From NCBI GenBank assembly GCA_032718475.1, contig JAUCBJ010001190.1:1-50939 (forward strand): DNA of 50,939 nt. The letters are read 5' to 3'. Within the stretch, counting starts at the first letter, position 1. The number at the start of each line of letters is the position of its first letter. The position numbers were made by a program, and so were the translations under genes. This document shows, one piece after another, positions 5,525-50,939 of the stretch. The notes under the pieces are model-generated. The model had not been told where the DNA came from. It made no database searches and saw nothing but the letters and a program-made list of their open reading frames with translations. The DNA is from Nemertoderma westbladi. Taxonomy: Eukaryota; Animalia; Xenacoelomorpha.

Positions 5525-5638
5525 ATGACGACGTGTCAACATCTTGCTGATTTCCTCGACACACATGGTACAAAAAGTTTCCTTATTATCCATCGGAAAA
5601 TAATATTTAGCTCTTCCAAATCCGGATTAAAGAGAAAG
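5525..5638 (+). CDS. USP22: USP22 exon 1
   Basis: [38 protein letters not shown] followed by AAG|GTAATT; the CxHL...KRK pattern matches the USP22 N-terminus. Confidence 0.85.
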
Positions 5639-28385: not shown

Positions 28386-28781
28386 GTAAGTAAATTATAT
28401 TATAAAAATCATAAAATATACTTTATTTAGTTTGTAATAAGTAACTTATTATTATAACTTTCATTGGGCATAGCTTTGCAAAGTCGGCTATGACGTCCAG
28501 GTGGGATCGAACTGGTCACCTCCAGTTTTTCTTTCTCACTTTTTAATCAGCTTTGAAATTACCACTACCATAAAACATTAATTTACCGTAGAGTAAATTT
28601 ACATTTACTTTACTTTATTTAAAATATGATGATAATAATATAAAGACTTTACCTTGTTGAGCATTTACGATTAAATAAGTATTCATACATACAACACATA
28701 TTCACTAAATTGTACAATAACTACGACAACCGTAACCTTTACAGTAGTCCAAGTCCAGGGTGTAACACGGTTTTGATATCC

Positions 28782-31700
28782 CTGGTAGTAGATATATCTA
28801 TCTTACAGGAGCAGTAAAACAGCTTCCTCACTGGTAGTAATATCTTCCACAAACAGCTTCCTCACTGGCAGTAGATATATCTATCTTACAGGAGCAGTAA
28901 AACAGCTTCCTCACTGGTAGTAGATATATCTATCTTACAGGAGCATTAAAACAGCTTCCTCACTGGTAGTAGATATTTCTTCCTCAAACAGCTTCCTCAC
29001 TGGTAGTAGATATATCTATCTTACAGGAGCAGTAAAAACAGCTTCCTCACTGGTAGTAGATATATCTATCTTACAGGAGCAGTAAAACAGCTTTCCTCAC
29101 TGGTAGTAGATATATCTTCCACAAACAGCTTCCTCACTGGTAGTAGATATATCTATCTTACAGGAGCATTAAAACAGCTTCCTCACTGGTAGTAGATATA
29201 TCTATCTTACAGGAGCAGTAAAAACAGCTTCCTCACTGGTAGTAGATATATCTATCTTACAGGAGCAGTAAAACAGCTTCCTCACTGGTAGTAGATATAT
29301 CTTCCACAAACAGCTTCCTCACTGGTAGTAGATATATCTATCTTACAGGAGCATTAAAACAGCTTCCTCACTGGTAGTAGATATATCTATCTTACAGGAG
29401 CAGTAAAACAGCTTCCTCACTGGTAGTAGATATATCTATCTTACAGGAGCATTAAAACAGCTTCCTCACTGGTAGTAGATATATCTATCTTACAGGAGCA
29501 GTAAAACAGCTTCCTCACTGGTAGTAGATATATCTATCTTACAGGAGCAGTAAAACAGCTTCCTCACTGGTAGTAGATATATCTTCCACAAACAGCTTCC
29601 TCACTGGTTGTAGATATATCTATCTTACAGGAGCAGTAAAAACAGCTTCCTCACTGGTAGTAGATATATCTATCTTACAGGAGCAGTAAAAACAGCTTCC
29701 TCACTGGTAGTAGATATATCTTCCACAAACAGCTTCCTCACTGGTAGTAGATATATCTTTCACAAACAGCTTCCTCACTGGTAGTAGATATATCTATCTT
29801 ACAGGAGCAGTAAAACAGCTTCCTCACTGGTAGTAGATATATCTATCTTACAGGAGCAGTAAAAACAGCTTCCTCACTGGTAGTAGATATATCTTCCACA
29901 AACAGCTTCCTCACTGGTAGTAGATATATCTATCTTACAGGAGCAGTAAAAACAGCTTCCTCACTGGTAGTAGATATATCTTCCACAAACAGCTTCCTCA
30001 CTGGTAGTAGATATATCTATCTTACAGGAGCATTAAAACAGCTTCCTCACTGGTAGTAGATATATCTATCTTACAGGAGCATTAAAACAGCTTTCCTCAC
30101 TGGTAGTAGATATATCTTCCACAAACAGCTTCCTCGCTGGTAGTAGATATATCTATCTTACAGGAGCAGTAAAACAGCTTCCTCACTGGTAGTAGATATA
30201 TATATCTTACAGGAGCAGTAAAAACAGCTTCCTCACTGGTAGTAGATATATCTATCTTACAGGAGCATTAAAACAGCTTCCTCACTGGTAGTAGATATAT
30301 CTATCTTACAGGAGCATTAAAACAGCTTCCTCACTGGTAGTAGATATATCTATCTTACAGGAGCAGTAAAACAGCTTCCTCACTGGTAGTAAATATATCT
30401 ATCTTACAGGAGCAGTAAAACAGCTTCCTCTTCCTCACTGGTAGTAGATATATCTATCTTACAGGAGCATTAAAACAGCTTCCTCACTGGTAGTAGATAT
30501 ATCTATCTTACAGGAGCAGTAAAACAGCTTCCTCACTGGTAGTAAATATATCTATCTTACAGGAGCAGTAAAACAGCTTCCTCTTCCTCACTGGTAGTAG
30601 ATATATCTATCTTACAGGAGCATTAAAACAGCTTCCTCACTGGTAGTAGATATATCTATCTTACAGGAGCAGTAAAAACAGCTTCCTCACTGGTAGTAGA
30701 TATATCTTCCACAAACAGCTTCCTCACTGGTAGTAGATATATCTATCTTACAGGAGCATTAAAACAGCTTCCTCACTGGTAGTAGATATATCTATCTTAC
30801 AGGAGCATTAAAACAGCTTTCCTCACTGGTAGTAGATATATCTTCCACAAACAGCTTCCTCGCTGGTAGTAGATATATCTATCTTACAGGAGCAGTAAAA
30901 CAGCTTCCTCACTGGTAGTAGATATATATATCTTACAGGAGCAGTAAAAACAGCTTCCTCACTGGTAGTAGATATATCTATCTTACAGGAGCATTAAAAC
31001 AGCTTCCTCACTGGTAGTAGATATATCTATCTTACAGGAGCATTAAAACAGCTTCCTCACTGGTAGTAGATATATCTATCTTACAGGAGCAGTAAAACAG
31101 CTTCCTCACTGGTAGTAAATATATCTATCTTACAGGAGCAGTAAAACAGCTTCCTCTTCCTCACTGGTAGTAGATATATCTATCTTACAGGAGCATTAAA
31201 ACAGCTTCCTCACTGGTAGTAGATATATCTATCTTACAGGAGCAGTAAAACAGCTTCCTCACTGGTAGTAGATATATCTTCCACAAACAGCTTCCTCACT
31301 GGTAGTAGATATATCTATCTTACAGGAGCATTAAAACAGCTTCCTCACTGGTAGTAGATATATCTATCTTACAGGAGCAGTAAAACAGCTTCCTCACTGA
31401 TAGTAGATATATCTTCCACAAACAGCTTCCTCACTGGTAGTAGATATATCTATCTTACAGGAGCATTAAAACAGCTTCCTCACTGGTAGTAGATATATCT
31501 ATCTTACAGGAGCAGTAAAACAGCTTCCTCACTGGTAGTAGATATATCTTCCACAAACAGCTTCCTCACTGGTAGTAGATATATCTTCCACAAACAGCTT
31601 CCTCACTGGTAGTAGATATATCTTCCACAAACAGCTTCCTCACTGGTAGTAGATATATCTATCTTACAGGAGCAGTAAAACAGCTTCCTCACTGGTAGTA

Positions 31701-34396
31701 GATATATCTATCTTACAGGAGCAGTAAAAACAGCTTCCTCACTGGTAGTAGATATATCTATCTTACAGGAGCATTAAAACAGCTTCCTCACTGGTAGTAG
31801 ATATATCTATCTTACAGGAGCATTAAAACAGCTTTCCTCACTGGTAGTAGATATATCTTCCACAAACAGCTTCCTCACTGGTAGTAGATATATCTATCTT
31901 ACAGGAGCAGTAAAAACAGCTTCCTCACTGGTAGTAGATATATCTATCTTACAGGAGCATTAAAACAGCTTCCTCACTGGTAGTAGATATATCTATCTTG
32001 CAGGAGCAGTAAAACAGCTTCCTCGCTGGTAGTAGATATATCTATCTTACAGGAGCAGTAAAACAGCTTCCTCACTGGTAGTAGATATATCTATCTTACA
32101 GGAGCATTAAAACAGCTTCCTCACTGGTAGTAGATATATCTATCTTACAGGAGCATTAAAACAGCTTCCTCACTGGTAGTAGATATATCTATCTTACAGG
32201 AGCAGTAAAACAGCTTCCTCACTGGTAGTAAATATATCTATCTTACAGGAGCAGTAAAACAGCTTCCTCACTGGTAGTAGATATTTCTTCCTCAAACAGC
32301 TTCCTCACTGGTAGTAGATATATCTATCTTACAGGAGCATTAAAACAGCTTTCCTCACTGGTAGTAGATATATCTTCCACAAACAGCTTCCTCACTGGTA
32401 GTAGATATATCTTCCACAAACAGCTTCCTCACTGGTAGTAGATATATCTATCTTACAGGAGCAGTAAAACAGCTTCCTCACTGGTAGTAGATATTTCTTC
32501 CTCAAACAGCTTCCTCACTGGTAGTAGATATATCTATCTTACAGGAGCAGTAAAAACAGCTTCCTCACTGGTAGTAGATATATCTATCTTACAGGAGCAG
32601 TAAAACAGCTTCCTCACTGGTAGTAGATATTTCTTCCTCAAACAGCTTCCTCACTGGTAGTAGATATATCTATCTTACAGGAGCAGTAAAAACAGCTTCC
32701 TCACTGGTAGTAGATATATCTATCTTACAGGAGCAGTAAAACAGCTTCCTCACTGGTAGTAGATATTTCTTCCTCAAACAGCTTCCTCACTGGTAGTAGA
32801 TATATCTATCTTACAGGAGCAGTAAAAACAGCTTCCTCACTGGTAGTAGATATATCTATCTTACAGGAGCAGTAAAACAGCTTCCTCACTGGTAGTAGAT
32901 ATTTCTTCCTCAAACAGCTTCCTCACTGGTAGTAGATATATCTATCTTACAGGAGCAGTAAAACAGCTTCCTCACTGGTAGTAGATATTTCTTCCTCAAA
33001 CAGCTTCCTCACTGGTAGTAGATATATCTATCTTACAGGAGCATTAAAACAACTTCCTCACTGGTAGTAGATATATCTATCTTACAGGAGCAGTAAAACA
33101 GCTTCCTCACTGGTAGTAGATATATCTTCCACAAACAGCTTCCTCACTGGTAGTAGATATATCTTCCTCAAACAGCTTCCTCACTGGTAGTAGATATATC
33201 TATCTTACAGGAGCAGTAAAACAGCTTCCTCACTGGTAGTAGATATATCTATCTTACAGGAGCAGTAAAACAGCTTTCCTCACTGGTAGTAGATATTTCT
33301 TCCTCAAACAGCTTCCTCACTGGTAGTAGATATATCTATCTTACAGGAGCATTAAAACAGCTTTCCTCACTGGTAGTAGATATATCTTCCACAAACAGCT
33401 TCCTCGCTGGTAGTAGATATATCTTCCACAAACAGCTTCCTCACTGGTAGTAGATATATCTTCCACAAACAGCTTCCTCGCTGGTAGTAGATATATCTAT
33501 CTTACAGGAGCATTAAAACAGCTTTCCTCACTGGTAGTAGATATATCTTCCACAAACAGCTTCCTCACTGGTAGTAGATATATCTATCTTACAGGAGCAG
33601 TAAAAACAGCTTCCTCACTGGTAGTAGATATATCTATCTTACAGGAGCAGTAAAACAGCTTCCTCACTGGTAGTAGATATATCTATCTTACAGGAGCAGT
33701 AAAACAGCTTTCCTCACTGGTAGTAGATATTTCTTCCTCAAACAGCTTCCTCACTGGTAGTAGATATATCTATCTTACAGGAGCATTAAAACAGCTTTCC
33801 TCACTGGTAGTAGATATATCTTCCACAAACAGCTTCCTCGCTGGTAGTAGATATATCTTCCACAAACAGCTTCCTCACTGGTAGTAGATATATCTTCCAC
33901 AAACAGCTTCCTCGCTGGTAGTAGATATATCTATCTTACAGGAGCATTAAAACAGCTTTCCTCACTGGTAGTAGATATATCTTCCACAAACAGCTTCCTC
34001 ACTGGTAGTAGATATATCTATCTTACAGGAGCAGTAAAAACAGCTTCCTCACTGGTAGTAGATATATCTATCTTACAGGAGCAGTAAAACAGCTTCCTCA
34101 CTGGTAGTAGATATATCTTCCTCAAACAGCTTTCCTCACTGGTAGTAGATATATCTTCCACAAACAGCTTCCTCACTGGTAGTAGATATATCTATCTTAC
34201 AGGAGCAGTAAAAACAGCTTCCTCACTGGTAGTAGATATATCTATCTTACAGGAGCAGTAAAACAGCTTTCCTCACTGGTAGTAGATATATCTTCCACAA
34301 ACAGCTTCCTCACTGGTAGTAGATATATCTTCCACAAACAGCTTCCTCACTGGTAGTAGATATATCTTCCACAAACAGCTTCCTCGCTGGTAGTAG
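28782..34396. repeat. Two-unit satellite (49-bp and 37-bp monomers interleaved), roughly 125 units
   Basis: CTGGTAGTAGATATATCTATCTTACAGGAGCAGTAAAACAGCTTCCTCA (49) and CTGGTAGTAGATATATCTTCCACAAACAGCTTCCTCA (37). Confidence 0.98.
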
Positions 34397-34506
34397 CTAC
34401 ATCTTCTTCCACATTTTCCTTTCCTTATGTATTTCGTTCGCAGGACCTTCATAATTCTCCAATAATCTCCGCCCAGTTTGCTATAAAGCTGCTTTACGCT
34501 CTCAGT

Positions 34507-34558
34507 TCAGTTTAATAAAGAGTCTCTCTCGCCACGATCAGATTTGGTTGGTTGTTTC
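34507..34558 (-). CDS. Ig-TM gene exon 5 (cytoplasmic tail, stop)
   Basis: TTTCAG|G-KQPTKSDRGERDSLLN*; homologous to 44214-44265. Confidence 0.8.
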
Positions 34559-37500
34559 CTGAAATATTGTTATATTTTGATGTATTAGTGGCCTAAATTA
34601 TACCGCATAAGGTTGAAACTTGAAACAAGCTTAATAATATTTGGGTAAAAACAAATTTAGAGACAATGAAATTTATATACAGACAATACCTTCAATAAGG
34701 GACTATCCTTAAATTGCGTAACGCGTGAGAGGGAGGGGGGGGGGGGGGGGGGGGGTGGTCAAAAATCGTCTAAAATACCGTCACTAAATTTAAGGATGAC
34801 TCCTAATGACTCCTGTTTGACTCACTTTCTCTTATAAATAGCGCAGATAATGGCAAGAATGAGTATTATCCAAGATGCTACCGCTATCCCAACCATAATT
34901 CCCCAATGACTTTCCAATTCTGCCTCTGTGCCCGCTACTACCTGGTCTACAACACCGTTGTCACTCAGTGCGTTATTGAGTGTGTCTTCTAGATCATTCT
35001 TCATCTCCGAGATTTTGTTTTCTTTCACGTTGATTTTTGAGACTACCCAGAGCTGACTGGTCTTCCTCTTTTGAACAATGCATTCCCATTGTCCGATATA
35101 TGTTGCTTCCATGGCAGGAATGGAATACGACATATCCTGGGGGAATATTATTTATTATTATATATACTTCTGGTAGCTTCACAACAACTTGTTGTGGTTT
35201 TTCTACTGCAGACATAGACTATGTGTGTTAGCGGATCCAGTCCACTATGCGCTCCCATTACAAAGTGGAGCGGGTGCCAATTTACCAATATTGGCCGTAA
35301 GAAACATCAGGCTAGTAAGTGAGTTAAACTCACTTACAGCAAACCCAAAACCCAATATAGCTCGGCAGGGGGATAAGCGTGATATTGCAGCCAATGAGCA
35401 GGGTGTATCAACTCTAAGGCTACCATATTGGTACGATTATCAATTCCCAGTTGTCGGTCAGCTGACGGTCAGTCGGAAGGCCGAACCCTTCATAGGGCGG
35501 CAGTTAATTTAACCCACAGAGGGTGATACGTTTTGTATAATCGTATCATATAGGCTACAGTACAACATCGGCTACCGGTCTAGTATCTTCAGTCAGTGCA
35601 ATCGACAATTTCATTATATTGACGCCACAGTTATTAACTATATCCGCTTTTCTGTACCTGACCCCCGACAACAATCTGTGTATTGCTAAGTTAATAAGAA
35701 AACTAACCCCAGCATCAACCTATAACATCCGCCGCGCCAACCTCCCTCCCGTCACAATGTGGGTGGCCTGGTCTGGTCACTCATTCAGTGGTCACTCTTC
35801 TCACATAGACCAGACAGGTATTCAGTAGTTATTCCACCAAAGAGTGGCCGTTGTATTACTTGTATTATACTCACAGATTTTTCAGTCTTTTTATCTCCTA
35901 TAAGTTTAGGTCGCTTTATTTTGACCCCATCCTGGACCCAGTAGACTTCAGTGTCTGCCAAGTAATGAACCAATGATTGACTTGGGCATTTTAATATCAA
36001 CGGCTGACCAACATCAAGTGATACCGTGACAGATACTGCAAAATAATTTCATTAAATTTGGTTTAGCTTATCAAAAACAAATGTAATGTAATTAACAAAA
36101 GATTGGCAAGTGAATAATGAATTGTTCTTGTCTCTCCTATTTCACTCTATTTTAATTAATCCGTTAGGTTATGACACTTAAAACCCTGCCGTTAGTAAAT
36201 AGTAAAGAAAAAGATTAAGTGTCATGGGACTTTAAGAAAATCCATGTTTTTTTTTATTATACTCAACAAACCATATTAACGATACCGACACTATTCAATA
36301 CAAATTAATAGCAATATTAATTTGACTACAATAATTATTTAAATAACATTTAAATTAGTTATACTTAACTTATCTTAGGAAACATACCAGTGATCAAGTA
36401 GCAATCCAAAGTTTCTGTTTTGTTCACCGCCCAGTTAATGTGATATACGTATATGCCATTGTTTTTTTCTTGAGCTTTTTCTATCAATAGTTTGTTTATC
36501 CAATGGTAATCGCCTTTGAATTTTAAAAAAGAAACTATTTGCTGTTATGAACTATTTGCAATGTAACTTTATTGCAAGAGTTATATTTTCGATTTGTTCG
36601 ACATAATATATCGACAAATATTCGATACAAACCAAATAGGTTCAGCGAAATTCCAGGAAGATCTTACTGTACAATTAATATTTTTCTTTATAATGTAATA
36701 TATATTCTAGAACATCTCTAATTCGATCCTAATTCTTCACTATACTGCACTCTATGATTTGCTTGAACAGCCAATTACAATAATTACCAACTTCATACAA
36801 TTATGCCAACTCCAAATCATCGACGTCCAACATTTGAACTGAAGTTTCATAATATAATTAATACATTGGTAATTTACGGTTCGACTATTTAGAGCGGCAT
36901 TAGAACAGGTACTCCTATATAGGTGTCCATGCTGGGCTCTAACTGCTGAGGACACCAAATCTCTGGATAGTAACAATGTGTTGGCAAGCTGTATTTTTCG
37001 AGGTGTTTGTTATTATACATTTTATTATAAGAAGGGATCTAGGGGTCTTAACCTCGAATGATAAGTTTATTTTACCGAAAATAACTTATCTTTTATTGGC
37101 GCAATTGTAGGACTAATCCCATCACATGCGTACTTTTTAACCGGGTAGTGTACAAATTTAGGAATCGCGTAATTTTTCTTGAAATTAATATCTCATATCT
37201 CTCCAAACCACGTACGCGTTTCGACCTTACTGGGTCTCATCAGCGTGGTGTCGGATTCGAACCTGGGACCTCGAGGCGGAAGCCGAGACTACAACCACTA
37301 GGCCACAGGTTCTTGAGATATGGAGTATTAATTTCAAAGACAGCTGCCATTTTATTAGCCCCTGATTTTTGATTATTGATAGTAACAATGTGTTGGCAAG
37401 CTGTATTTTTCGAGGTGTTTGTTATTATACATTTTATTATAAGAAGGGATCTAGGGGTCTTAACCTCGAATGATAAGTTTATTTTACCGAAAATAACTTA

Positions 37501-40500
37501 TCTTTTATTGGCGCAATTGTAGGACTAATCCCATCACATGCGTACTTTTTAACCGGGTAGTGTACAAATTTAGGAATCGCGTAATTTTTCTTGAAATTAA
37601 TATCTCATATCTCTCCAAACCACGTACGCGTTTCGACCTTACTGGGTCTCATCAGCGTGGTGTCGGATTCGAACCTGGGACCTCGAGGCGGAAGCCGAGA
37701 CTACAACCACTAGGCCACAGGTTCTTGAGATATGGAGTATTAATTTCAAAGACAGCTGCCATTTTATTAGCCCCTGATTTTTGATTATTGATAGTAACAA
37801 TGTGTTGGCAAGCTGTATTTTTCGAGGTGTTTGTTATTATACATTTTATTATCCTAGACCCCTTAACCGTTAAGACCGTTAAGACCCCTAGATCCCTTCT
37901 TATAATAAAATCTCTGGATGGCACATTCACAAGAATGCTACGCCGGGTTCATTGTGACAAGTACAATGCACACATCTCCAACGAGTATATAACATTGGAG
38001 GTGTCTCATTGGTACCCCCAAGCTTGACACTAGAACAAAATCGCCTCCGCTTTGCAGGACATTGCTTTCGCCGTGAGGACCAGCCAGTGCATAATCTTGT
38101 ACTTTGGCAGCCTCATGGAGTGAATAAGCATGGTGGACAGCCCATTTCGCACACTTCGCCGGGAGGCCTGGCGGCGTGAGGCCGTATCGCAGCGCGAGGT
38201 TGTCGCGGAACACCTCTGGGGCCAGGTCGGTGTTATCGACGACGTAAGGCTGCGCCGACAGCCACCCACACGTCTTGTGGGACACCGTACGGTCGACAGT
38301 TCGGCGCCTTTCGGCAGGGACGGAATGGACTGCGGACTCCATAGCTGCCTTATAGGCAGCGTCCTGGGCGACGCGACTCGCAGCCAATGCGGAGACAGGA
38401 CGGACTGAGTGGTCGACGACGATTTGGTTGGGAAATAGCTCAGTTATGGGCATTGGAATGTTGCATGTATTTGCTTCCGCTGCAGGCCATTTTTTATATT
38501 TAATAAATACACAAATATTTTTACATATTTGGAATCCTTGCATGGCCAGCTTTCCATTGGTACCAACAAACAGCTATAAGGTTGAAGAATAACTGCGGTG
38601 TAACTGGTGCAAAATCGACGGAGACACTTTTTTCAAACGCTTGTAGCTAAAGGATGAAAGCGAAAATAAAAATTCTGGCTCACCCAGCAAGGAGGAGGTA
38701 TAGGTGCAAAACTATCTCTGTTTCAAATTTCATGCAATCGAATTTGTAGTCGAATTTGGGGGGGGGGGGGGGTGGCACTGAATTACGACACTATATTCCA
38801 GAACATGGTTGCCAACTTCTATAGAATTTATATCAATTAAACAGATCTCCTATTGGTTGATTATTCGCTATTTGCTGCGTTATATTGACGAAAATGTGTT
38901 TTTTTAATGTGTTTTTTTGTGATTTTATTTTTATTTTTTATTTTTTACATAATGATTAGCTAGTAGAGTTGTAATTAAAATGATTAGCTCATTAGATTTT
39001 TAATTAAAATATGTTACTGAGTCACTTTTCAGTTAATAGTTTGCTTTTATCAGGTCAATTAGATCAAGAAACGGTGTCTCGACATGAAGTCCACGCCATC
39101 TGAACTCCCCTAAGTGATTTTCAATGTTTGCCACAGCACTTTTATTTCGATGCATAATTGCGAATTTAGCATGGCGCCACATCCCTTCTATACGTTGGGT
39201 ATTAGCCCCGGTTGCTGGGTTCACAAAACGCCCCTTTCCCTTGGTAGCATGCTTCACTTTGAGGTGCGTGTAGCCCCCATTTCCATCGCTGCACTGCCAC
39301 TGATCCCTCCTGTTCATGATACCAACTCGCCGACCGCAATATGCTGACCATTCATCTGACATAATTGTCGTTCCACCTTTGATATGGCGTTCAACAATCG
39401 GTCGTAGTGTTTCTGTGTCACGTCGCTGCACATGGAACATTCGCATGTCGACTGATTTATCAGCTCTTTTATGGACTAGCCCAAAAATCCATGGCCCATC
39501 AACAACTGCTCGTCCATAATTCCTTGCAGCGCTGATGTAATCTCCTTTCAGCTTCCTCCCGCGCTTATATTTCCTCCGACCCCAAAACAGTGATTCATCG
39601 ATTTGAATCGATTCTCCTGGGCCGCCCATTGGGTCTGCCTCCTTCATGTCCTTGTACATTAATTCACGTTCAAAGTTGGCCCAATCAATCATCGTGTGAT
39701 CATTGATGTAACCAACTATTCCACCAAGTAGACGGTGAGTTACCTTCATAGTTGTTTCTATGATGAAGAAGAACATCAGCCAGAGAATTTGCTTTACCAA
39801 TAGATTTGAGTTGTTTGCAAACCATGTTTCAACACGTGCAGACCGGCGATGCCTCTTTGGAGAACTGCAGAGCCACATCAGACGTGGAAAACAGTGTCTA
39901 GGTTACAATCTTGTTCAATTTGTGCGTCATCTTTCGGAAGTAGACCAACTCGTTGCATGAATTTTATAGCATTACCTGCATCTCCAATCTGAGAAACCAA
40001 CTCTTCCACGTTCGGATCATGCCGATTAGGTCTAGGATAGTGGTGTCTTATATCACCGCCACCACCTGCCATTTTATAGCTAGTCGTATAAATATAAAAT
40101 AAACGCACTTAAGAATGTGTAAAACAAAATAATACAAATTAAAAATGTTCCAGAAAAACCAACGTTATTAAATCACAAAAAAAAACACATTTTCGTCACC
40201 CGGGCCACAGTAGTACCTGGCACGTTATGCTAACCAAAACAAACATTAAACAATGTGTGCGACAATCCCCCTGCCTGTGATAACTCAGGAGTTGAAGTGC
40301 TAATTCGATGTGTTTACGGTAAGGTCAAGTAATTAACAACCCCAACCCATCTTATAATTAAACTTGAAATTGGCGCTATTGATGTATTATTGTATTGATT
40401 GACCAGAAATTAACTTACTTTTTTTGGGTCCCTTTTCATGACTATTTATTGATGATATATTTCTGCCATTATGCGTCCAGTAAGCATATTTGTATGACAT

Positions 40501-41352
40501 CAACATATAAATATTTTCTATCTTAATTTTTCTTTCAATTACAATTTTCTCATTCTCTTTTACCACGATGTTGTGTTCAACGTTATTTAATGTGCTGCAC
40601 TTTACGACACGAATTGATTTCAAAAGTACCTTCTGGACATTTGTAAATATGTCCAATAGTTTTCCATGGTCAGTTTCTCTAATAGTTACTACATCTTTCC
40701 ATGCCGTGTTCCTTGATGTTTCATCTTTCTTCGTGTCGGGTTCTTTTTCAACCTGTCCACTACTTCCATCTCTCATCCGGGTTATTCCTTGTTTAACATT
40801 ATATTTCGGATGCTCATGAGCAACACTGTTAATTAAAGAGCGTCCGATTGTATTATCACTGTTGGTTTTATAATTAGTTTCTGTCCCACGATTAATTAAT
40901 TTACTGTTTTTCAGTAATCTTACTTCGTTATCCATTGAAGACATGTAAGAGAATTTCGTCCCGTTCTTGTCTTGTATCTCAAATCCCATATCGACATTTT
41001 CATCTTCTGGTATCTCAAATCCAATGCTATTTGTATTTTCGGTTTTATTGCCGTGAGATGCGCTTAAAATTATTTCTGTTTTTGAATCCAATGCTCGTTT
41101 CTCTGGTTTCCTACCGAGCGGAGTGTGGGGGTCTTGATTTCCCAGGACGATATGATTATCCTTCGTGTGTTGCTTCCCCGTAGAAGAATGCGTTATTCTT
41201 TCGTTTTGTTTTCTTACCGATGATATTATATTTACACGATCTGAGTGTCTTTCCTCTAACCTGTTCGGCTGACATGCTATTTTCAGATGAAATAATGTTA
41301 ATGTTATAATTATAGCTGCTAAATTAACGTTATACATTTCTTTTGTAATCAT
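34507..41352 (-). CDS. Nested antisense gene: 527-aa type I membrane protein with two Ig-like domains
   Basis: complement(join(40419-41352,36388-36513,35875-36035,34826-35136,34507-34558)) is 1584 nt, all GT-AG, phases 1,1,0,2 consistent, no stops. It has a signal peptide (LAAIIITLTLFHLKIAC), polar stalk, Ig1 (YWTHNG...LLIEKAQEKNNGIY), Ig2 (GQPLILKC...VYWVQDG...GQWECIV), TM (WGIMVGIAVASWIILILAIICAIY) and tail KRKKQPTKSDRGERDSLLN. Confidence 0.85.
34826..35136 (-). CDS. Ig-TM gene exon 4 (end of Ig2, transmembrane helix)
   Basis: CCCCAG|DMSYSIPAMEATYIGQWECIV...AIICAIYKR|GTGAGT. Confidence 0.85.
35875..36035 (-). CDS. Ig-TM gene exon 3 (start of Ig2)
   Basis: TTTGCAG|(V)SVTVSLDVGQPLILKCPSQSLVHYLADTEVYWVQDG...KTEKS|GTGAGT. 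Confidence 0.85.
36388..36513 (-). CDS. Ig-TM gene exon 2 (end of Ig1)
   Basis: TTCAAAG|(S)DYHWINKLLIEKAQEKNNGIYVYHINWAVNKTETLDCYLIT|GTATGT; the acceptor is a weak AAG, so the 5' edge is less certain. Confidence 0.75.
37207..37249 (-). ncRNA. Type I minimal hammerhead ribozyme, copy 3
   Basis: Exact reverse complement of 14711-14753. Confidence 0.92.
37619..37661 (-). ncRNA. Type I minimal hammerhead ribozyme, copy 4
   Basis: Exact reverse complement of 14711-14753. Confidence 0.92.
38146..38420 (-). mobile_element. GC-rich fragment of a CRE-like non-LTR retrotransposon
   Basis: GWLSAQP...LAPEVFRDNLALRYGLTPPGLPAKC resembles the WL..P...FRD.L.LRYG..P..LP..C segment that precedes the zinc knuckle of CRE-clade elements (from memory). 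Confidence 0.65.
38422..38760. repeat. Dispersed repeat, copy 2 (see 2012-2335)
   Basis: Direct match from ~38513 onward; the first ~60 bp is inverted relative to copy 1. Confidence 0.85.
38886..40198 (-). mobile_element. Merlin (IS1595/ISXO2-like) DNA transposon
   Basis: Inverted ends TGACGAAAATGTGTTTTTTT (38886-38905) and AAAAAAACACATTTTCGTCA (40179-40198) enclose a DDE transposase. No TSD seen. Confidence 0.85.
39033..40072 (-). pseudogene. Merlin/ISXO2-like DDE transposase, frameshifted near 39880
   Basis: GGPGESIQIDES, WIFGLV, TIMSDEWSAY, VKH...FVNP.TGANTQRIEGMW. The N-terminal part (from ATG 40072) is in a different frame. Confidence 0.88.
40419..41352 (-). CDS. Ig-TM gene exon 1 (signal peptide, stalk, start of Ig1)
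   Basis: A 311-codon open frame in very AT-rich DNA, ending GPKK-A|GTAAGT. Confidence 0.85.
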
Positions 41353-41805
41353 GGTAGCTATTCCCTCCGACTCTAGTTTACATTTTCTTCATATTTTAGT
41401 TGCCAAAGATACTTTGATATATTAATCCCCAAATTAATTATAACTATCTGTTTGAATATTGCTACTTTTCAAAAAAAAAACATTTAAAAAAATTCTAGAA
41501 CAAACAAATTAAGAACATTTAAAAAATGTTTTATACGTCATTGTTCATAAAGTAGCACTTTATAGCGTTACGGCTCGAGGGATTTTGTTTCCCGAGCGAC
41601 AGCGTCGTTTCCCGAACGACCGCGAGGGAGATAATAGAATGAGGGCCGTAAAAACTTTAAAGTGCTAATCTAATGATGTCCAATGGCGAATCTAATTTTT
41701 TTTATTTGCGAGGAATTATTTGTAGTTATGCACTTAAACTTTCTAGAACAACCTATTAATGTCGCGGTGACATACTGGGTATATTGGATATACTGGAAAT
41801 ACATA

Positions 41806-42099
41806 GGCCTGTGTACACGTGGCAACTTTTAGAGCAACTTTCTCGGCAACTTGTAGAGCAACCCAGGTTGCCGATCAAGTTGCTCCGTGTAAACACGTAA
41901 AAAAGTTGCTGTAAAAGTTTCTCAACTTTTACGGCAACTTGAAGGAATTTGCGTTGGCGAATTAAAGCGAGATAATCAAATTAAATTATCATAAACTAGC
42001 TGTAGATAAAATGACCCACTATTTTACAGTCAAACTAGCCAAGTTGCTCTAAACGTTGCCGGCCAAGTTGCTGGTAAAGTTGCCACGTCTAAACAGGCC
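41806..42099. mobile_element. PIF/Harbinger-type MITE
   Basis: GGCCTGTGTACACGTGGCAACTTT ... AAAGTTGCCACGTCTAAACAGGCC with ATA/TTA flanks and internal GCAACTT/AAGTTGC repeats. Confidence 0.75.
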
Positions 42100-42370
42100 T
42101 TAAGCCAAGAAAGCATAAGCTTATTGAACCTGTTCATACACAATAATATATGTATGTATGTAAGATTCACTGTACACCAAATTAATTACACAAATTTTAC
42201 AACCGAAAATAAAAGAATGGGAAACTAAACTAAGCGTCGCACTAACTATTTCCATACTTGTGTGTAAAGTAGCACTTTACAGTGTGATGATCCGAGTGGC
42301 TTTGTTAAACGAACGAACGTTAGTGAGTGAGTGAAAATAAAGCCACGAGGATCAGGTACATTGCAATAAG

Positions 42371-43100
42371 TATGTATGTAGGTTTATTCCAAAATTTTAA
42401 CATTACGAAATGATTGTACATATAGATTATAAGTGATAGAAACTGCACAAATTATATTAGTTGCTGTATAAATAAATGTAAAAATGACATAAATTATGTT
42501 ATAAATAAGTTAGCAGCTTATATTTATGGTGGGGTGTGGAGCCATATTATAATAGGAAAAGTACAAATTAAAATTTACCCGAACAAAATGGCCAATCTTA
42601 TAAAAACAATAAGACATTAAAATTTACCCAAACAAAGTGGCCAATCTTATACAAACAATAATACAGAGATTGAGATCAATGTGTGAAGAATATAATCTAA
42701 AAATAGTCCCGTGTATATATCTACAGTATAATCAGACAAAATAGAAATTACACAAACTCAAATTGAGATCACCAAAAAAAATTAATTAATAATTAATTAA
42801 TTATATAATATTAAAATAAATGAAATTAAAAATGAAATAAAAATAAAAATGTGAACCAATCTAGAGTAGATCTAACGAATGTAATAATGTAAGTTTGTAG
42901 TTGGCTTTATAAGTTACTAAGGAAGTGAGTGTGGAAGGGATAACGCCTATGTCTACCACGAGGGAGTGAACTTCAGGGGTAGGTTATGGCAGTGATCGTT
43001 TAGGCGTGATATGAAGATATTCAATGATGAGGACGATACGACCATATCACTTAGGGAGTTCCAAGGGTCTATGACTCTGAAGTGGAAGGTTTGAGTTTCG
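42371..43100 (-). mobile_element. CR1-type LINE 3' fragment
   Basis: FHFRVIDPWNSLSDMVVSSSSLNIFISRLND matches the CR1 ORF2 C-terminus; AATAAA plus a (TACA)n tail at ~42371-42388. Confidence 0.7.
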
Positions 43101-44213
43101 CTGTAGGAGGCGTAGGGACATACTGAGAAATAATGTCGCACTGCGATATAAAACTGGAAAATATGTCGCCCTGGCGATTTGAAGTGCGAAATTAATTCCA
43201 TACAAATAAATATAATATCTAATGTGATGTGATGAAATATATATCTTTTTGTAATGTGTGATGATTAATCTTTGACTAGTCGCCCTAGCGACTGGAGAAC
43301 TGTTGAGACACTCATTCAAATTATATTTCAGACTTTCGTCTTGTGTACCAGGTTTGGTTTAATTTCATCAAAATAGTTATTAGTCTTTAAACGTTTGCCG
43401 AATTATTATAGCCTATGAAACTGGGTGATTTCATTGTCCTATCATTGCCCAATGGCCATTAATAATTGAGCAGAAACATATTGTAATGTCAGCCACAGAG
43501 CTTACCTATACTTCGAAAACAAATTGTATGCCGAAAATGTTGTAGAGCTATTTCATAGCAATGGCATCAGACACCATATTTTGAATCATATTTAGGGCAA
43601 TCGTAATGTTGGTCACACGAGACAAATCTCTGTTGCAGATGTCACGTAACTTATAGATACTGAAAGTATTTGAATTAGTTCAGCCATTCCATATGTGGAA
43701 TTTTTTCTTCTGATTTTAAGAAACAACCTGGAATTTAAGATTTATTCTTTAACTTTTAGGAAAAATGCGCAATGATGTTAGAATGCTATCTTGGACTTCC
43801 AAGTAAATATTTTACATAGTGAAGCGACAACTTATAAGAAAAATAATAAAATAATATACGAACATAATAAAAACAAACTTTGGTACCGGTATCACATTAC
43901 AGGTTATCAAGATATTATTATTATTATCTAACTGGTCTATTATAAGTGACATACTCAGGTAGTCACACATAGAGATACTCAGACATCCTCGGAAGTTAGT
44001 GCAGCAGTTTATATAATGATTGTTTATTCTCTAAGTTCGTTATTAATCCATTTGTAATATATTTCTAGAGTTAATTAATCTATTTATGGTGTCTAGAACT
44101 TCATATCTTCAAGAGGCAGTTACAGGTTCCTCACTGGTAGTAGCTACATCTTACTTTCGCATTCTCCAATAATCTCCTTCCAGTGTGATATAAAGCTGCT
44201 TTAAGCTCTCGGT

Positions 44214-44265
44214 TTATTCCAATAAAGAGTCACTCTCTTCAGGATCCGGTTTAGTTTCTTGTTTC
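44214..44265 (-). CDS. Last coding exon of a paralogous Ig-TM gene (upstream exons not found in window)
   Basis: TTTCAG|G-KQETKPDPEESDSLLE*; same length and phase as 34507-34558, and the 3' flank is alignable too. Confidence 0.75.
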
Positions 44266-44440
44266 CTGAAATATATATTTCGAGACTGAGACGAATTGAC
44301 AAACTTTATAAATTTTGCATTCAGAAGTTATGTACATACTTTTGCGTAAAGTTGCACTTTACGTGAGCCAAGTGGTTTGTTACCCGGAGGAACATAGTGA
44401 GTGAGAGTGAAGCGTCTCGAGGTCGGAACAACACTGAGAG

Positions 44441-47085
44441 TAGATAGATAGATAGATTTATTTATACATTATGTAAAAAACAATAACAAATACACCAAAC
44501 AATGTACCGGTATAAAGGTATTGTCCAACATAACATATAGGATTACCCCTAAAGCTTTGCAGCTTATTTCCAAGGGCGTCCTTTATGTTACTTGGTTACA
44601 AATACAATATTACACTACGCTAACCTAAAACCAATATAAAACGTAATTACACTATGTACATGTACAACTTTACCGAGAGCGTGACAATGCCCGACTCAAC
44701 GATAAAGATGTAATGTACAGAACAATTTATTATAAAACGTAATTACAGTATAAATAGTAAATAATTAATAAACTAATAACTTACTGTAGGACTATTGTAC
44801 CTATTTTTACATTGCACACGGAGGTGAGATTTAACTGCAGATTTAAAAGAATGTTGATTATTTAGGTTTTTAATTTCATTAGGCAGAGCGTTCCAATTTT
44901 TTATGCCGTTAAAAAAGAAAGTATCAGATTCAAAGGATTTACAATTCGGGAGGTAGAAGTTTGAAGCACTAGCTCTGGTACTGTAAGAGTGTGTATCGCG
45001 TACTCTGTTGAATTTTTGTTTTAGGTAATTGGGACATTTACCATTATACACTTTATGCACATGGTTAAGGCGTAGCTGCTTAACTCTACTATCTAAGTTA
45101 AGTAGTCCAGATTCAGAAAAGTCATCTGGAGTTAGGTGGTGCCTAGGTTTGTAGTCTTTAATAAATCGTACTACTTTATTCTGAGCTACTTGTAATTTAC
45201 ATTTAAGCTGTTTGGTTAAGCCTTCATACCAAGAAGAGCACGCATAGTCCATGTGACACTGTATTAAAGAAGAGCAAAGTAACTTGCGGGAGTCGGTGTT
45301 TAAACTATTTTTATTTCTGTATAGAAACCTAAGCCTACTGTTAACTTTCGAGAAAATATTTTTCACTGTACTTTCTCCTGATAAGCAGTTATCAAATGTG
45401 GCGCCTAAATATTTAACTTCCTTTTTATTTTCAATCTTATGTCCATTACTAGTGACTTCAAACTTAGTTACCTTCTTTAACTTTCTTTTGGAACCAAACA
45501 AAATACTTTCAGTTTTACCGTAGTGAATGGATAGCTTATTATCAACCAACCACTCATTACAGGATTCTAGAACTGCACTTAACTTTTGGGAAATATGGAT
45601 AGGATCTTTATGAGAGAAAATAAGAGCACTGTCGTCGGCATATAAAATGAGTTTAAAATCGGGATCTATACTACTTATCATATCATTTACATAGCATACA
45701 AAAAGCAGAGGACCTAATATACTACCTTGCGGTACACCACAGGTAATCTCTTGTACAGTAGACAGCGATTTGCTAATGACTACAGTTTGACCTCTGTCTG
45801 ACAGGTAGGACTTGAACCAGTCTATAGAACCTACACCCATCAGGCCTAACTTACCAAGCAGAATTTCGTGATCTACAGTATCGAAAGCCTTTTGTAGGTC
45901 CAACATTACCATACCAGTATATAAACCCTTTGCGTTATTACATCTAATTGTATCAGTTAAGTTAATAAGGCAGGTGTCTGTAGAATATGATTTACGAAAA
46001 CCGGACTGAAGTTCATAGATCAGATTTAGCCTACTAAGATGTGCCTCCAGCTGTAGAAAAACAGAACGTTCTAGAATTTTAGATACAATACTTAAGATAC
46101 TAACAGGTCTGTAATTACAGGGTTCTACTTTACTATTCTTTTTATACAGAGGAACAACCTTAGCTAATTTCAGTTCGTCTGGTACTACATTATCTACGAT
46201 AGAGTAATTAATAATAAAAGTAATAGGCACTTTAAGTACTTCAGCACCATCCTTAAGAAAACGGGCAGGTATTAGGTCTAGACCGGTACTTTTTGAGGGT
46301 GATAGGCTAAGTAGATTTTTAAAAACGAAATCCTCAGAAACGGGTTTTAAAAATAACTTTTCTGAATTTTGTAACTTTTCTAAATAAAAATTATTTAGAG
46401 TTTCGGACCCTATACTATATTTATTACTTGATAACGGTAATTTCTTAACTAAATTAGAGGCAACATTAGTAAAATAATTATTAAATAAATTACTAACTAG
46501 AGTATGATCATGAATCAGCTCACCGTTATCTTGCAGAACAATATTCGATTTAGATTTAAGGTTTTTATAACCTAAAGATTTTAGGGTAGACCATAGACTT
46601 TTTGGATTATCTTTATTCTCACTTATTTTGTTGTACAAATATTCAGATTTAGCTTTTTTTTATTTCCCGTTGGACAAGGTTTCTATATTTGCAGTAATTA
46701 TTATAATCAGCTAAAACACGGTATTTCCTAAATTTATACAAATAGTTATCTCTTTCTCTGATATTACTAAGAATACCCGAGGTCATCCAGGGCTCAGTGC
46801 GTTGTTTAAGACTAATTTCTTTAATTGGTGCTACAGTATTAAGTGCCTTTAAAAATATATCTTTAAAAACAGTGTACGCAAGGTTAATGTCAGCGGCCTT
46901 AAAACAGGGTTCCCAGTCAGAATTAACTAACAAACTTAAAAAGCGTTCCTTGCTGTAATTTTTCATAGACCTAACTGTTACTGTTTTATGATCCCCGAAA
47001 AAAGATTTTTGTGTCTTTCTTGTGCAAAAAACTATAAAATGATCGCTTAGACCTATAGGTAAAACCCCAGATTGAGTACATGGCA
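44441..47085 (-). mobile_element. 5'-truncated L2/Crack/CR1-group LINE
   Basis: End of APE (GLSDHFIVF), a frameshift near 46640, then a 621-aa RT frame at 44773-46638 ([32 protein letters not shown]); 3'UTR stem-loop, AATAAA and (TCTA)n tail. Confidence 0.92.
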
Positions 47086-47323
47086 ACAACGTAGTTTTAT
47101 TCCAAAATTGTAACATTACGAAACGGCTACTGAAGAAAATCTGAGTATGAAACTTTTGATATTAAAAAAAGAGCATAATTGTTGTTGGAATTCATCATGT
47201 AAGATTAGCTCACCCCCCCCCCCCCCCCCCCCCCCCCAAACAGTAGTTAATGTAATTACGGTTTGCTGTTGCCTTCACCAGTTCATTTTGCTAATTGGTC
47301 TAGCTAGTATTTACATTTATTTA

Positions 47324-50300
47324 GGGTAGGTGTAAAACGCGGATCCGGATCCGGATCCGGATTCAGGATCCGGATACGGATCAGGACCCGGATTTGAGAG
47401 TGTAAAAGGCGGATCCGGATTTACATACAATCCGTAACTGAGTGTAATATGCGGATTCTGAAATACGCAATCCGTATTGCAGTGTAAAACGCGGATTCAT
47501 ATATTTTGTGAATCCGGAATGGAGTGTAAAACACGGATTTACGTTAATTACCAAGTTTTAATGGATCCGGAATGGAGTGTAAAACACGGATTTTCGTTAA
47601 TTACCAAGTTTTGTTGGATCCGGAACGGAGTGTAAAATACGGATTTTCGTTAATTACCAAGTTTTATTGGATCCGGAATGGAGTGTAAAACACGGATTTA
47701 CGTTAATTACCAAGCTTTATTGGATCCGGAATGGAGTGTAAAACACGGATTTTCGTTAATTACCAAGTTTTGTTGGATCCGGAACGGAGTGTAAAATACG
47801 GATTTAAGTTAATTACCAAGTTTTATTGGATCCGGAATGGAGTGTAAAACACGGATTTACGTTAATTACCAAGTTTTGTTGGATCCGGAACGGAGTGTAA
47901 AATACGGATTTTCGCTAATTACCAAGTTTTATTGGATCCGGAATGGAGTGTAAAATACGGATTTACGTTAATTACCAAGTTTTATTGGATCCGGAATGGA
48001 GTGTAAAACACGGATTTACGTTAATTACCAAGCTTTATTGGATCCGGAATGGAGTGTAAAACACGGATTTTCGTTAATTACCAAGTTTTGTTGGATCCGG
48101 AACGGAGTGTAAAATACGGATTTAAGTTAATTACCAAGTTTTATTGGATCCGGAATGGAGTGTAAAACACGGATTTACGTTAATTACCAAGTTTTGTTGG
48201 ATCCGGAACGGAGTGTAAAATACGGATTTTCGCTAATTACCAAGTTTTATTGGATCCGGAATGGAGTGTAAAATACGGATTTACGTTAATTACCAAGTTT
48301 TATTGGATCCGGAATGGAGTGTAAAACACGGATTTTCGTTAATTACCAAGTTTTGTTGGATCCGGAACGGAGTGTAAAATACGGATTTTCGTTAATTACC
48401 AAGTTTTATTGGATCCGGAATGGAGTGTAAAACACGGATTTTCGTTAATTACCAAGTTTTGTTGGATCCGGAACGGGGTGTAAAACGCGGATTCAATTTA
48501 TTTACCAAGTGTTACTGGATCCGGGAAGGGGTGTAAAACGCGGATTGATTCAGGTTTATTACAAAGTGTTACTGGATCCGGGAAGGGGTGTAAAATGCGG
48601 ATTTACGTTAATTACTGAGTTTGTTAATGAGGGACACAACTATTAATGAGGGACACATATTAAAGAGGGACACAAACATTAATGGGGGACACCGTAATAG
48701 TTAATAGACACCTTAATAATTTGTCTATGTCTAGGGGCCACACATATGCTTAATCCGGCTCTGGGGGACACCTTAATAGGGGTCAATGCTTCCCAATGAA
48801 TTATTAATAAGGGGCGATGGTGATGCTGGCCGTCAGACATTATTAGATATTGATTAGCTGAAAAACTACTACTGTGGGAACGTGACCTCTCTGGTAGAGC
48901 GGCTCTGTAGACAACAGAGCCAATACAACGATATGTGTCCCACATTAATGTTTGAGTCCTGGCCGCCGCTATGGGCTTCCGTACCCCTTATACTAGAGAC
49001 AACACAACCATATATATTAGTATTACCTTTTATGTCCTGTTCTGTTCCCTGATTGGCTTATCCATCCCAACCTCCCTTACAAACAAGAATCACTGTTCTG
49101 CCTAGCTGGCGGTAGTTTGTACTGCATCATAGCGTCTTCTATTTAAGGCCTTGCAAGCGTGCTGCCTTCCTAATTAATGGAGGCTGAACTGTTCAGTATA
49201 ATTTCTTATTTAATTTCTTATTAAACATGGATGACAGTGATGACTTTGTAAAGGTTCCATTTACGGGATTCGTTATTCCGAGTCCAACCAATGAAACAGC
49301 CATTGTTGAGCCGCTTGAACTCACTACCCAAACATCGTGCACCCCGAGTCCGGAGAAGAAAAAAACCAGGAAAGTCCGCAAGCCAAGAAAAGTTACTAAA
49401 GAACAATAAACATTGTACTAATTAATAATTGTAACTAGATGAGGGTCTGGGTCTTTATTGCATATGCGTTTTACAAATTGTTCATTAAAACTTACTAATT
49501 TCACTTGAATCCGCGTTTTACACCCCTTCCCGGATCCAATAAAACTTGGTAATTAACGTAAATCCGTGTTTTACACTCCATCCCGGATCCAACAAAACTT
49601 GGTAATTAACGTAAATCCGTGTTTTACACTCCATTCCGGATCCAATAAAACTTGGTAATTAACGTAAATCCGTGTTTTACACTCCATTCCGGATCAAATA
49701 AAACTTGGTAATTGACGTAAATCCGTGTTTTACACTCCATTCCGGATCCAACAAAACTTGGTAATTAACGTAAATCCGTGTTTTACACTCCATTCCGGAT
49801 CCAATAAAACTTGGTAATTAATGTAAATCCGTGTTTTACACTCCATTCCGGATCCAACAAAACTTGGTAATTAACGTAAATCCGTGTTTTACACTCCATT
49901 CCGGATCCAACAAAACTTGGTAATTACGTAAATCCGTGTTTTACACTCCGTTCCGGATCCAATAAAACTTGGTAATTAATGTAAACCCGTGTTTTACACC
50001 CCTTCTCGGATCCAATAAACTAGGTAATTAACGTAAATCCGCGTTATACACCCCTTCTCGGATCCAATAAAACTTTGTAATTAACTAGAATCCGCGTTTT
50101 ACACCCCTTCCCGGATCCAATAAAACTTGGTAATTAACGTAAATCCGTGTTTTACACTCCATCCCGGATCCATTAAAACTTGGTAATTAACGTAAATCCG
50201 TGTTTTACACTCCATTCCGGATCCAACAAAACTTGGTAATTAACGTAAATCCGTGTTTTACACTCCATTCCGGATCCAATAAAACTTGGTAATTAACGTA

Positions 50301-50939
50301 AATCCGTGTTTTACACTCCATTCCGGATCAAATAAAACTTGGTAATTGACGTAAATCCGTGTTTTACACTCCATTCCGGATCCAACAAAACTTGGTAATT
50401 AACGTAAATCCGTGTTTTACACTCCATTCCGGATCCAATAAAACTTGGTAATTAACGTAAATCCGTGTTTTACACTCCATTCCGGATCCAATAAAACTTG
50501 GTAATTAACGTAAATCCGTGTTTTACACTCCATTCCGGATCCAACAAAACTTGGTAATTAACGTAAATCCGTGTTTTACACTCCATTCCGGATCCAACAA
50601 AACTTGGTAATTAACGTAAATCCGTGTTTTACACTCCATTCCGGATCCAATAAAACTTGGTAATTAACGTAAATCCGTGTTTTACACTCCATTCCGGATC
50701 CAACAAAACTTGGTAATTAACGTAAATCCGTGTTTTACACTCCATTCCGGATCCAACAAAACTTGGTAATTAACGTAAATCCGTGTTTTACACTCCATTC
50801 CGGATCCAATAAAACTTGGTAATTAACGTAAATCCGTGTTTTACACTCCATTCCGGATCCAATAAAACTTGGTAATTAACGTAAATCCGTGTTTTACACT
50901 CCATTCCGGATCCAACAAAACTTGGTAATTAACGTAAAT
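47324..50939. mobile_element. Foldback-type element: inverted arrays of a 53-bp unit around a ~0.9-kb core; right end outside window
   Basis: Left array ~47510-48620 (GGATCCGGAATGGAGTGTAAAACACGGATTTACGTTAATTACCAAGTTTTATT), right array ~49507-50939 is its reverse complement. The left terminus is TTA|GGGTAGGTGTAAAACGCGGATCCGG. Confidence 0.85.
49227..49409 (+). CDS. Possible 60-aa micro-ORF with a basic C-terminus in the foldback core
   Basis: AAACATGG start context, upstream ATTGG (49052) and TATTTAA (49140), AATAAA overlapping the stop, and KKKTRKVRKPRK. Confidence 0.35.
   Translation: MDDSDDFVKVPFTGFVIPSPTNETAIVEPLELTTQTSCTPSPEKKKTRKVRKPRKVTKEQ

Follow-up and report, generated by a model that had tools for sequence, protein, structure and literature searches.

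A divergent membrane protein gene with two candidate immunoglobulin-like domains, most likely nested antisense in USP22 of Nemertoderma westbladi

The window analysed here is a 50,939-nucleotide (nt) stretch of Nemertoderma westbladi contig JAUCBJ010001190.1, with a GC content of about 35% outside its satellites. It carries a USP22/nonstop-type gene on the plus strand and, on the minus strand from 41352 to 34507, a gene of five exons that is the subject of this study (Table 1). A duplicated tail exon, transposable elements and satellite arrays accompany these two genes. We argue that the product of the minus-strand gene is probably best read as a divergent type I surface protein of the immunoglobulin (Ig) superfamily.

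Joined, the five exons form 1584 nt that encode 527 amino acids (aa) and a stop, bearing out the in-frame splicing proposed in the initial annotation. All introns are GT-AG, in phases 1, 1, 0 and 2, every splice dinucleotide is intact, and the 527 codons are free of stops and frameshifts. When models were enumerated over acceptors and donors, 10 remained open (five acceptors by two donors), differing in exon 2 alone. The 527-residue model takes the exon 2 with the most pyrimidine-rich acceptor and a GTATGT donor. This donor is the best among the 76 candidates in its intron, and the exon lies in unique sequence; its acceptor is ambiguous, and the exon can be skipped in frame.

Three statistics indicate that this is coding DNA: frame length, codon periodicity and donor ranks. 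The open frame of exon 1 runs for 333 codons, a length reached in none of 300 dinucleotide shuffles of 34400-41500 (longest 248), and exon 1 has no in-frame stop, compared with 11-33 in each of the other five frames. Base composition varies by codon position across the whole coding sequence (p = 1.5e-8), within residues 28-240 (p = 0.001) and within exons 2-5 (p = 0.0007), and no such bias appears in any of five intron or flank controls (p = 0.17-0.76). Scored with a matrix of nine USP22 donors, the four donors fall in the top 2.0, 0.3, 2.8 and 5.3% of 395 GT sites. The acceptor matrix, built from eight sites only, ranks the acceptors at 23.9, 3.2, 73.7 and 7.3% of 410 AG sites, of which two are good and one middling.

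Table 1. Features of the window, with coordinates in nt (TM, transmembrane helix; UTR, untranslated region; LINE, long interspersed nuclear element; LTR, long terminal repeat; E, expect value)
Feature	Coordinates	Strand	Remarks
Exon 1, aa 1-311	40419-41352	-	predicted signal peptide, polar N-terminal region, amphipathic segment 227-247, first half of domain 1 (W292)
Exon 2, aa 312-353	36388-36513	-	second half of domain 1; phase 1-1; alternative acceptor 36534
Exon 3, aa 354-407	35875-36035	-	strands A'-B-C of domain 2 (G363, C370, W386)
Exon 4, aa 408-510	34826-35136	-	strands E-F-G of domain 2 (G422, W424, C426), acidic stalk 446-483, predicted TM ~485-507
Exon 5, coding part	34507-34558	-	short cytoplasmic tail, ExxxLL directly before stop, no tyrosine
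Paralogous last exon and 3' UTR	44085-44265	-	blastn 83% over 114 nt
LINE	44450-47200	-	628-codon reverse-transcriptase frame, PF00078 E 2.8e-36; in intron upstream of paralogous tail exon
IS1595/Merlin-type DNA transposon	38886-40198	-	transposase frame 39033-39902, PF12762 E 1e-9
Non-LTR retrozyme dimer	36957-37907	-	412 bp x 2.2 tandem; hammerheads 37192-37259 and 37604-37671
Retrotransposon fragments in intron 1	37908-38480		37908-38145 has copies elsewhere in window
Satellite downstream of stop	28782-34367		5.6 kb, 37/49-nt units
USP22/nonstop-type gene	5525-28385	+	9 exons; tblastn and profile of homologues
USP22 exons	5525-5638, 12522-12654, 13098-13214, 13696-13797, 17245-17414, 25426-25768, 26725-26835, 27353-27540, 28219-28385	+	

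The spliced protein has only two hydrophobic segments, at residues ~9-27 and 485-507, which are predicted to be a signal peptide and a TM helix. Together with a tail of 20 residues, they agree with the layout first described for this locus. The ~210-aa 'stalk' of that description does not: the polar region lies at the membrane-distal N-terminus, so that the word is wrong for it, and the actual stalk is the acidic stretch of 38 residues at 446-483. Residues 28-225 are polar and predicted to be unfolded (FoldIndex -0.14). Their Ser+Thr content of 18% and Pro content of 4% exclude a mucin stalk, and the ectodomain contains dibasic pairs only, with no R-x-K/R-R site of a furin-type propeptide. Within this region, residues 110-126 (40950-41030, minus strand) hold a short internal duplication in which a four-residue motif occurs twice, 11 codons apart. 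Four extracellular cysteines are left after the signal peptide, an even number, and one of them precedes domain 1. There is no tyrosine after residue 508, which leaves no possibility of signalling through an immunoreceptor tyrosine-based activation or inhibitory motif (ITAM or ITIM).

Of the two Ig-like domains originally proposed, the second (residues 354-445) has a Cys-Trp-Cys core. G363, C370, W386, G422, W424 and C426 stand at Ig spacings, and the Ig 'pin' is present, with C370 on the B strand, W386 on the C strand and C426 on the F strand. Among the 60 of 64 PDB matches listed for exon 3, all are antibody chains (best E 0.043), and their alignments pair C370 and W386 with the antibody B-strand Cys and C-strand Trp. 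C426 is placed on the F strand by the I-set profile described below. Exon 4 matched Ig-plus-TM clusters in the Atlas at scores of 0.81-0.85, one poxvirus cluster included, which is a lead only; nine of its ten best family-bearing matches share one family or clan, which is Ig in the matches listed. The case for domain 1 (~255-353) is weaker. It keeps W292 and the F-strand pattern G331-x-Y333, with R274 and Y335 at the cysteine positions, and the loss of both canonical cysteines, and with them of the pin, lowers its claim to Ig membership without removing it. The two domains are adjacent, meeting at residues 353/354, where a phase-1 intron falls. In Ig genes, domain borders are usually marked by phase-1 introns.

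Further, an I-set profile built from 60 bacterial I-set domains (60 of 186 matches, from 8 of 10 genomes) finds exactly two domains in the spliced protein, at 292-337 and 385-430, each spanning an exon junction. Only 2 of 1000 shuffles do as well or better for domain 1 and 1 of 1000 for domain 2; two polar controls are matched or beaten by 480 and 556 of 1000 shuffles. The profile score of exon 2 is reached by 1 of 1000 shuffles, and the initial half of domain 1, a part that involved no choice by eye, on its own scores above 992 of 1000. In our judgement domain 2 is very probably an Ig domain, and domain 1 is rather likely to be one.

The 3' end of the gene is duplicated. The paralogous exon starts at 44265 with a matching acceptor context, and 39 of its 52 coding nt are identical. 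Both copies stop at the equal codon, TAA in the paralogue and TGA in the gene, and both tails end in ExxxLL, while 6 of the 16 compared tail codons alter the residue. No other exon of the second copy was found in the window by tblastn; the LINE and satellites occupy the space where these exons would lie. The tandem duplication claimed in the initial annotation is thus borne out for one tail exon and its 3' UTR, and a second complete gene is not borne out in the window.

Past the stop, both copies remain open in frame on the minus strand, for at least 69 codons in the gene (34400-34506) and 20 in the copy (44085-44213), with two tyrosines at corresponding positions. This open stretch may be a relic of a longer tail, or chance. 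Identity past the stop (47 of 53 nt) is not significantly higher than before it (p = 0.08). Stop read-through into a tyrosine-bearing tail was rejected, as only one of six changed codons is silent and a silent-site bias did not appear.

Searches for relatives used single exons 3 and 4, and exon 1 was put to Pfam, PDB and the Atlas only, so that remote relatives may exist. Word-indexed searches yielded no relative among 111 candidates for exon 4 and 9 for exon 3. Exon 4 had no match at E 0.001 among 1.84 billion protein representatives, and none of 124 and 594 pattern matches in metagenome contigs was confirmed. Five such single-exon searches produced no relative, in agreement with the original statement that no family can be assigned, and this fits fast evolution. 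No description of the protein turned up in the literature, which does not imply its absence from print. In a recent paper on sea-urchin gamete proteins, the terms 'immunoglobulin', 'Ig-like' and 'FAM187' are absent (PMC13672419).

The plus-strand gene is identified by a Pfam UCH match at 25429-25767 (E 3.5e-12), and the named proteins among the best 120 of 465 homologues are nearly all USP22 or nonstop. Joined, its nine exons stay open for 481 codons, whose product aligns to residues 2-463 of a 530-residue scallop USP22, with near-equal scores against mammal and scallop proteins. Profile positions 454-535, which hold the catalytic His region, have no match among the window's 2812 six-frame segments, nor do about the last 66 residues. 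With a strong GTAAGT donor closing exon nine and no terminal exon in the window, the last exon most likely falls past 50939. Consequently, everything from 28386 onwards most likely sits in the last USP22 intron, which would exceed 22 kb. The antisense orientation proposed for the Ig gene is seen directly; its nesting is deduced from host exons visible on one side only.

USP22 itself shows two amplified donors. A 7.6-kb satellite at 17409-24996, with 474 copies of a 16-nt unit, begins at the exon 5 donor and contains 465 GGTAAGT, placing hundreds of donor-like sites directly behind the real donor. At 27518-27711, a 55-nt unit with the end of exon 8 and its donor is present in 3.5 copies, a second donor amplified in place.

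We suggest, with a probability of roughly 0.55, that the minus-strand gene, which probably sits inside the last USP22 intron, codes for a type I membrane protein specific to its lineage that likely serves in non-signalling adhesion or recognition through two adjacent Ig-like domains. Its signal peptide would be removed after C27. Domain 2 would be an I/V-type Ig domain closed by a C370-C426 disulfide, and domain 1 an Ig domain without a core disulfide, maybe tied by C252-C349 instead. The A' strand that opens domain 2 would follow at once upon the final strand of domain 1, making the pair a stiff rod held out from the membrane by the acidic stalk, and the 200 polar residues would be a flexible N-terminal arm, possibly cleaved. 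The rod may bind a partner that sits either in its own membrane or on a different cell.

Dileucine signals of the form [DE]xxxL[LI] are adaptor-binding. Here, ExxxLL would bind clathrin adaptors, so that vesicles would store or recycle the protein, which would act through its placement on the surface, controlled by trafficking and not by a phosphotyrosine signal. The tyrosine-free tail and the retention of ExxxLL in both copies favour a non-signalling adhesion protein over an immune receptor. A recognition role, as initially suggested, would be a fair reading. Of the gamete, immune and allorecognition roles named for it, immune signalling and allorecognition of the Alr type fit worst, and a gamete role may yet apply. 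Our confidence figures for this reading and its alternatives overlap.

Several points weigh against this reading. The gene, although probably real, is predicted from DNA alone, and its junctions are conjectural. The exon-4 acceptor scores poorly, at 73.7%; it is the sole one of four in-frame options that retains C426. The choice of exon 2 was made in part by eye, and on the I-set profile it is beaten by 10 of 205 other in-frame candidates, all within the retrozyme. The profile scores are low (6.9 bits for domain 1 and 6.5 for domain 2), full-length profile scoring is weaker (z 2.4 and 2.6, with 6 and 4 of 150 shuffles as high), and domains 1 and 2 show no significant likeness to each other (365 of 1000 shuffles). 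Pfam gave no match up to E 1 for the four single exons scanned, as expected because half domains lose search power. In PDB, exon 2 and the Ig part of exon 4 had no match, and the last 72 residues of exon 1 drew unrelated ones only. Folding used unspliced single-exon frames, and each domain is split by an intron: the single-sequence model of exon 4 alone (predicted local distance difference test, pLDDT, 70.7 in two of five models; predicted template modelling score 0.29) turns residues 8-59, among which strands F and G are proposed, into one helix, and that of exon 1 is uninformative (pLDDT 33.6). Adhesion, disulfides and sorting are likewise all putative.

Some of these results bear on the alternative that the gene is real and the model partly wrong, with domain 1 not Ig or exon 2 unused, which would leave a single-Ig protein with a long unrelated N-terminus. 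We consider this unlikely. It draws on the missing core cysteines of domain 1, on an exon 2 that is skippable, has several acceptors and is outscored by other candidates, and on the Atlas, where residues 200-311 drew no Ig match (unnamed short clusters at 0.90 are uninformative). Opposed to it are the strength of the exon-2 donor and the unique sequence around it, the shuffle result for the first half of domain 1, and C349, an exon-2 residue that brings the cysteines to an even number.

A special case of the adhesion reading, and in our view a rather doubtful one, is a sperm-surface fertilisation protein like FAM187/SPE-40 or IZUMO1/SPACA6/TMEM81, stored in an acrosome-type vesicle via the dileucine motif and exposed for egg binding. 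The parts list of FAM187 is alike; SPE-40 is described as going from vesicles to the sperm surface (10.64898/2026.05.14.723898), and testis is prominent among nested gene pairs in mammals and flies (PMC13343718; 10.1101/2023.05.02.539096). The fruitless search for relatives and the mostly residue-changing differences between the tail copies also suit a sperm protein. The domains themselves suit it less, since those of FAM187A are spaced apart whereas here they abut after a 200-residue polar arm, and IZUMO1, SPACA6 and TMEM81, which have a single Ig domain after a hinge, are reported to be vertebrate-only. Nor was any FAM187 protein among the matches of any search. We speculate, as an improbable extension, that a small family of sperm-surface Ig proteins, evolving very fast in an invertebrate lineage, has here its first member to be seen. 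It would do the work of FAM187/SPE-40, or descend from it beyond recognition, would have a cysteine-less outer Ig domain and a flexible arm of 200 residues, and would have been duplicated in a housekeeping intron and be diverging under gamete-recognition selection.

Of the inserts that the initial annotation placed in intron 1, the Merlin-type element is confirmed by its PF12762 match and carries 20-nt inverted arms at 38886-38905 and 40179-40198. The retrozyme is likewise upheld by its tandem structure and hammerheads, one match per full unit (E 3.6e-4, under the Rfam gathering score). The RTE-like and CRE-like labels stem from a resemblance and are unconfirmed by Pfam, which gave no match on 37941-38573. 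Non-LTR retrozymes are defined as tandem units each with a type I hammerhead (10.64898/2026.07.22.740005), and the 412-bp dimer fits this definition; self-cleavage is only predicted. In isolation, the hammerhead does not fold better than shuffled sequence (z -0.40). The retrozyme was inserted into a retrotransposon fragment with a 12-nt duplication, and a contig of run X1 shows the empty site, joining 36956 to 37908 with 12 letters shared. In 34420-44400 this run covers repeats only, and at 80% likeness it covers none of the USP22 exons in 25300-28700, so that it has no bearing on expression. The element ends in a 34-nt inverted copy. A second retrozyme insertion, at 14534-15350 in a USP22 intron, also lies in a retrotransposon fragment, and the hammerheads of both are on the sense strand of the gene occupied (plus for USP22, minus for the Ig gene).

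Downstream of the stop, the satellite grew from a short post-stop segment that is single-copy in the paralogue (44122-44152), and the first minus-strand AATAAA past the stop, at 28619, is 5.9 kb off, behind this satellite. Farther out, 47512-48622 and 49486-50939 are arrays of one 53-nt satellite in opposite orientation, separated by a unique stretch with a short plus-strand frame at ~49228-49410; this has the look of a foldback-type element. The palindrome TAGGCCTA has 10 occurrences in ~34 kb, a feature typical of echinoderms.

These insertions raise the question of a recently silenced copy, its frame still open and its expression lost after the intron-1 insertions and the 5.6-kb growth of the satellite. 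Two sense-strand hammerheads within intron 1 and the distant AATAAA would be in keeping with this, as would a neighbouring duplicate that could make the gene redundant; retrozymes are also reportedly depleted from Xenopus introns (10.64898/2026.07.22.740005). We nevertheless regard silencing as quite unlikely, given an unbroken frame of 527 codons with intact splice dinucleotides and an intact USP22 that also bears a sense-strand retrozyme in an intron. We hold as very improbable a receptor in immunity or allorecognition like Hydractinia Alr, with the gene part of a tandem array that encodes polymorphic Ig proteins. In its favour are the second copy 3 kb upstream and Alr I-set domains that, like domain 1, keep Trp and lose the paired cysteines. 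Against it, Alr genes have one exon per domain, mostly an Fn3-like spacer and many ITAM/ITIM tails (PMC9546547), and here both domains are split, a 38-residue stalk and a tyrosine-free tail follow, and only two copies are visible.

If expressed, the proposed adhesion protein would be the product of a gene missed by homology-based annotation, with no detectable relative for exons 3 and 4. Animals commonly have orphan membrane proteins with two Ig domains, and nested genes as well; the nesting arrangement is ordinary, and the locus by itself changes no model. It would matter if expression were confined to testis and selection on the gene were positive, since sperm adhesion proteins of the Ig type beyond vertebrates and nematodes are a current question; it would then be a concrete candidate to test.

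Comparison with known systems was made by description. FAM187A/B and C. elegans SPE-40 are sperm Ig proteins of the SPARK complex (10.64898/2026.05.13.724128; 10.64898/2026.05.14.723898). FAM187 proteins, found across bilaterians, combine a signal peptide and a pair of Ig-like domains with one TM and a short tail, as does the protein predicted here; the paper defining them set its similarity threshold at a BLAST E below 0.001. The Ig domains of human FAM187A lie at 48-129 and 273-361 (10.64898/2026.05.13.724128), leaving a segment of ~140 residues between them that has no equivalent here, whereas the 200-residue polar N-terminus is a feature of our protein. The likeness to FAM187/SPE-40 is one of layout, and any homology is putative. 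IZUMO1, SPACA6 and TMEM81 consist of a hinge and one Ig-like domain (10.1101/2023.07.27.550750); they resemble the present protein in a membrane-proximal Ig-like domain, a linker that is flexible and one TM helix at the C-terminus, and differ in being described from vertebrates only, whereas here two candidate domains occur with no cysteine-rich hinge. Alr proteins are also divergent, tandem-copied Ig surface proteins, and their cysteine-less, Trp-keeping I-set domains are like domain 1. Each Alr domain is, however, encoded in one exon 'without exception' (PMC9546547), and neither this arrangement nor the Fn3-like spacer or ITAM/ITIM tails is seen here. On the tests made, the predicted protein belongs to none of FAM187/SPE-40, the IZUMO1 group or Alr. 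Its probable setting is far more familiar: 659 internal genes are reported in Drosophila, and in mouse and human 12-17% of genes act as hosts (PMC13343718; 10.1101/2023.05.02.539096). Like these, the gene would lie with its entire coding sequence inside another gene's large intron, on the opposite strand, with no difference in kind.

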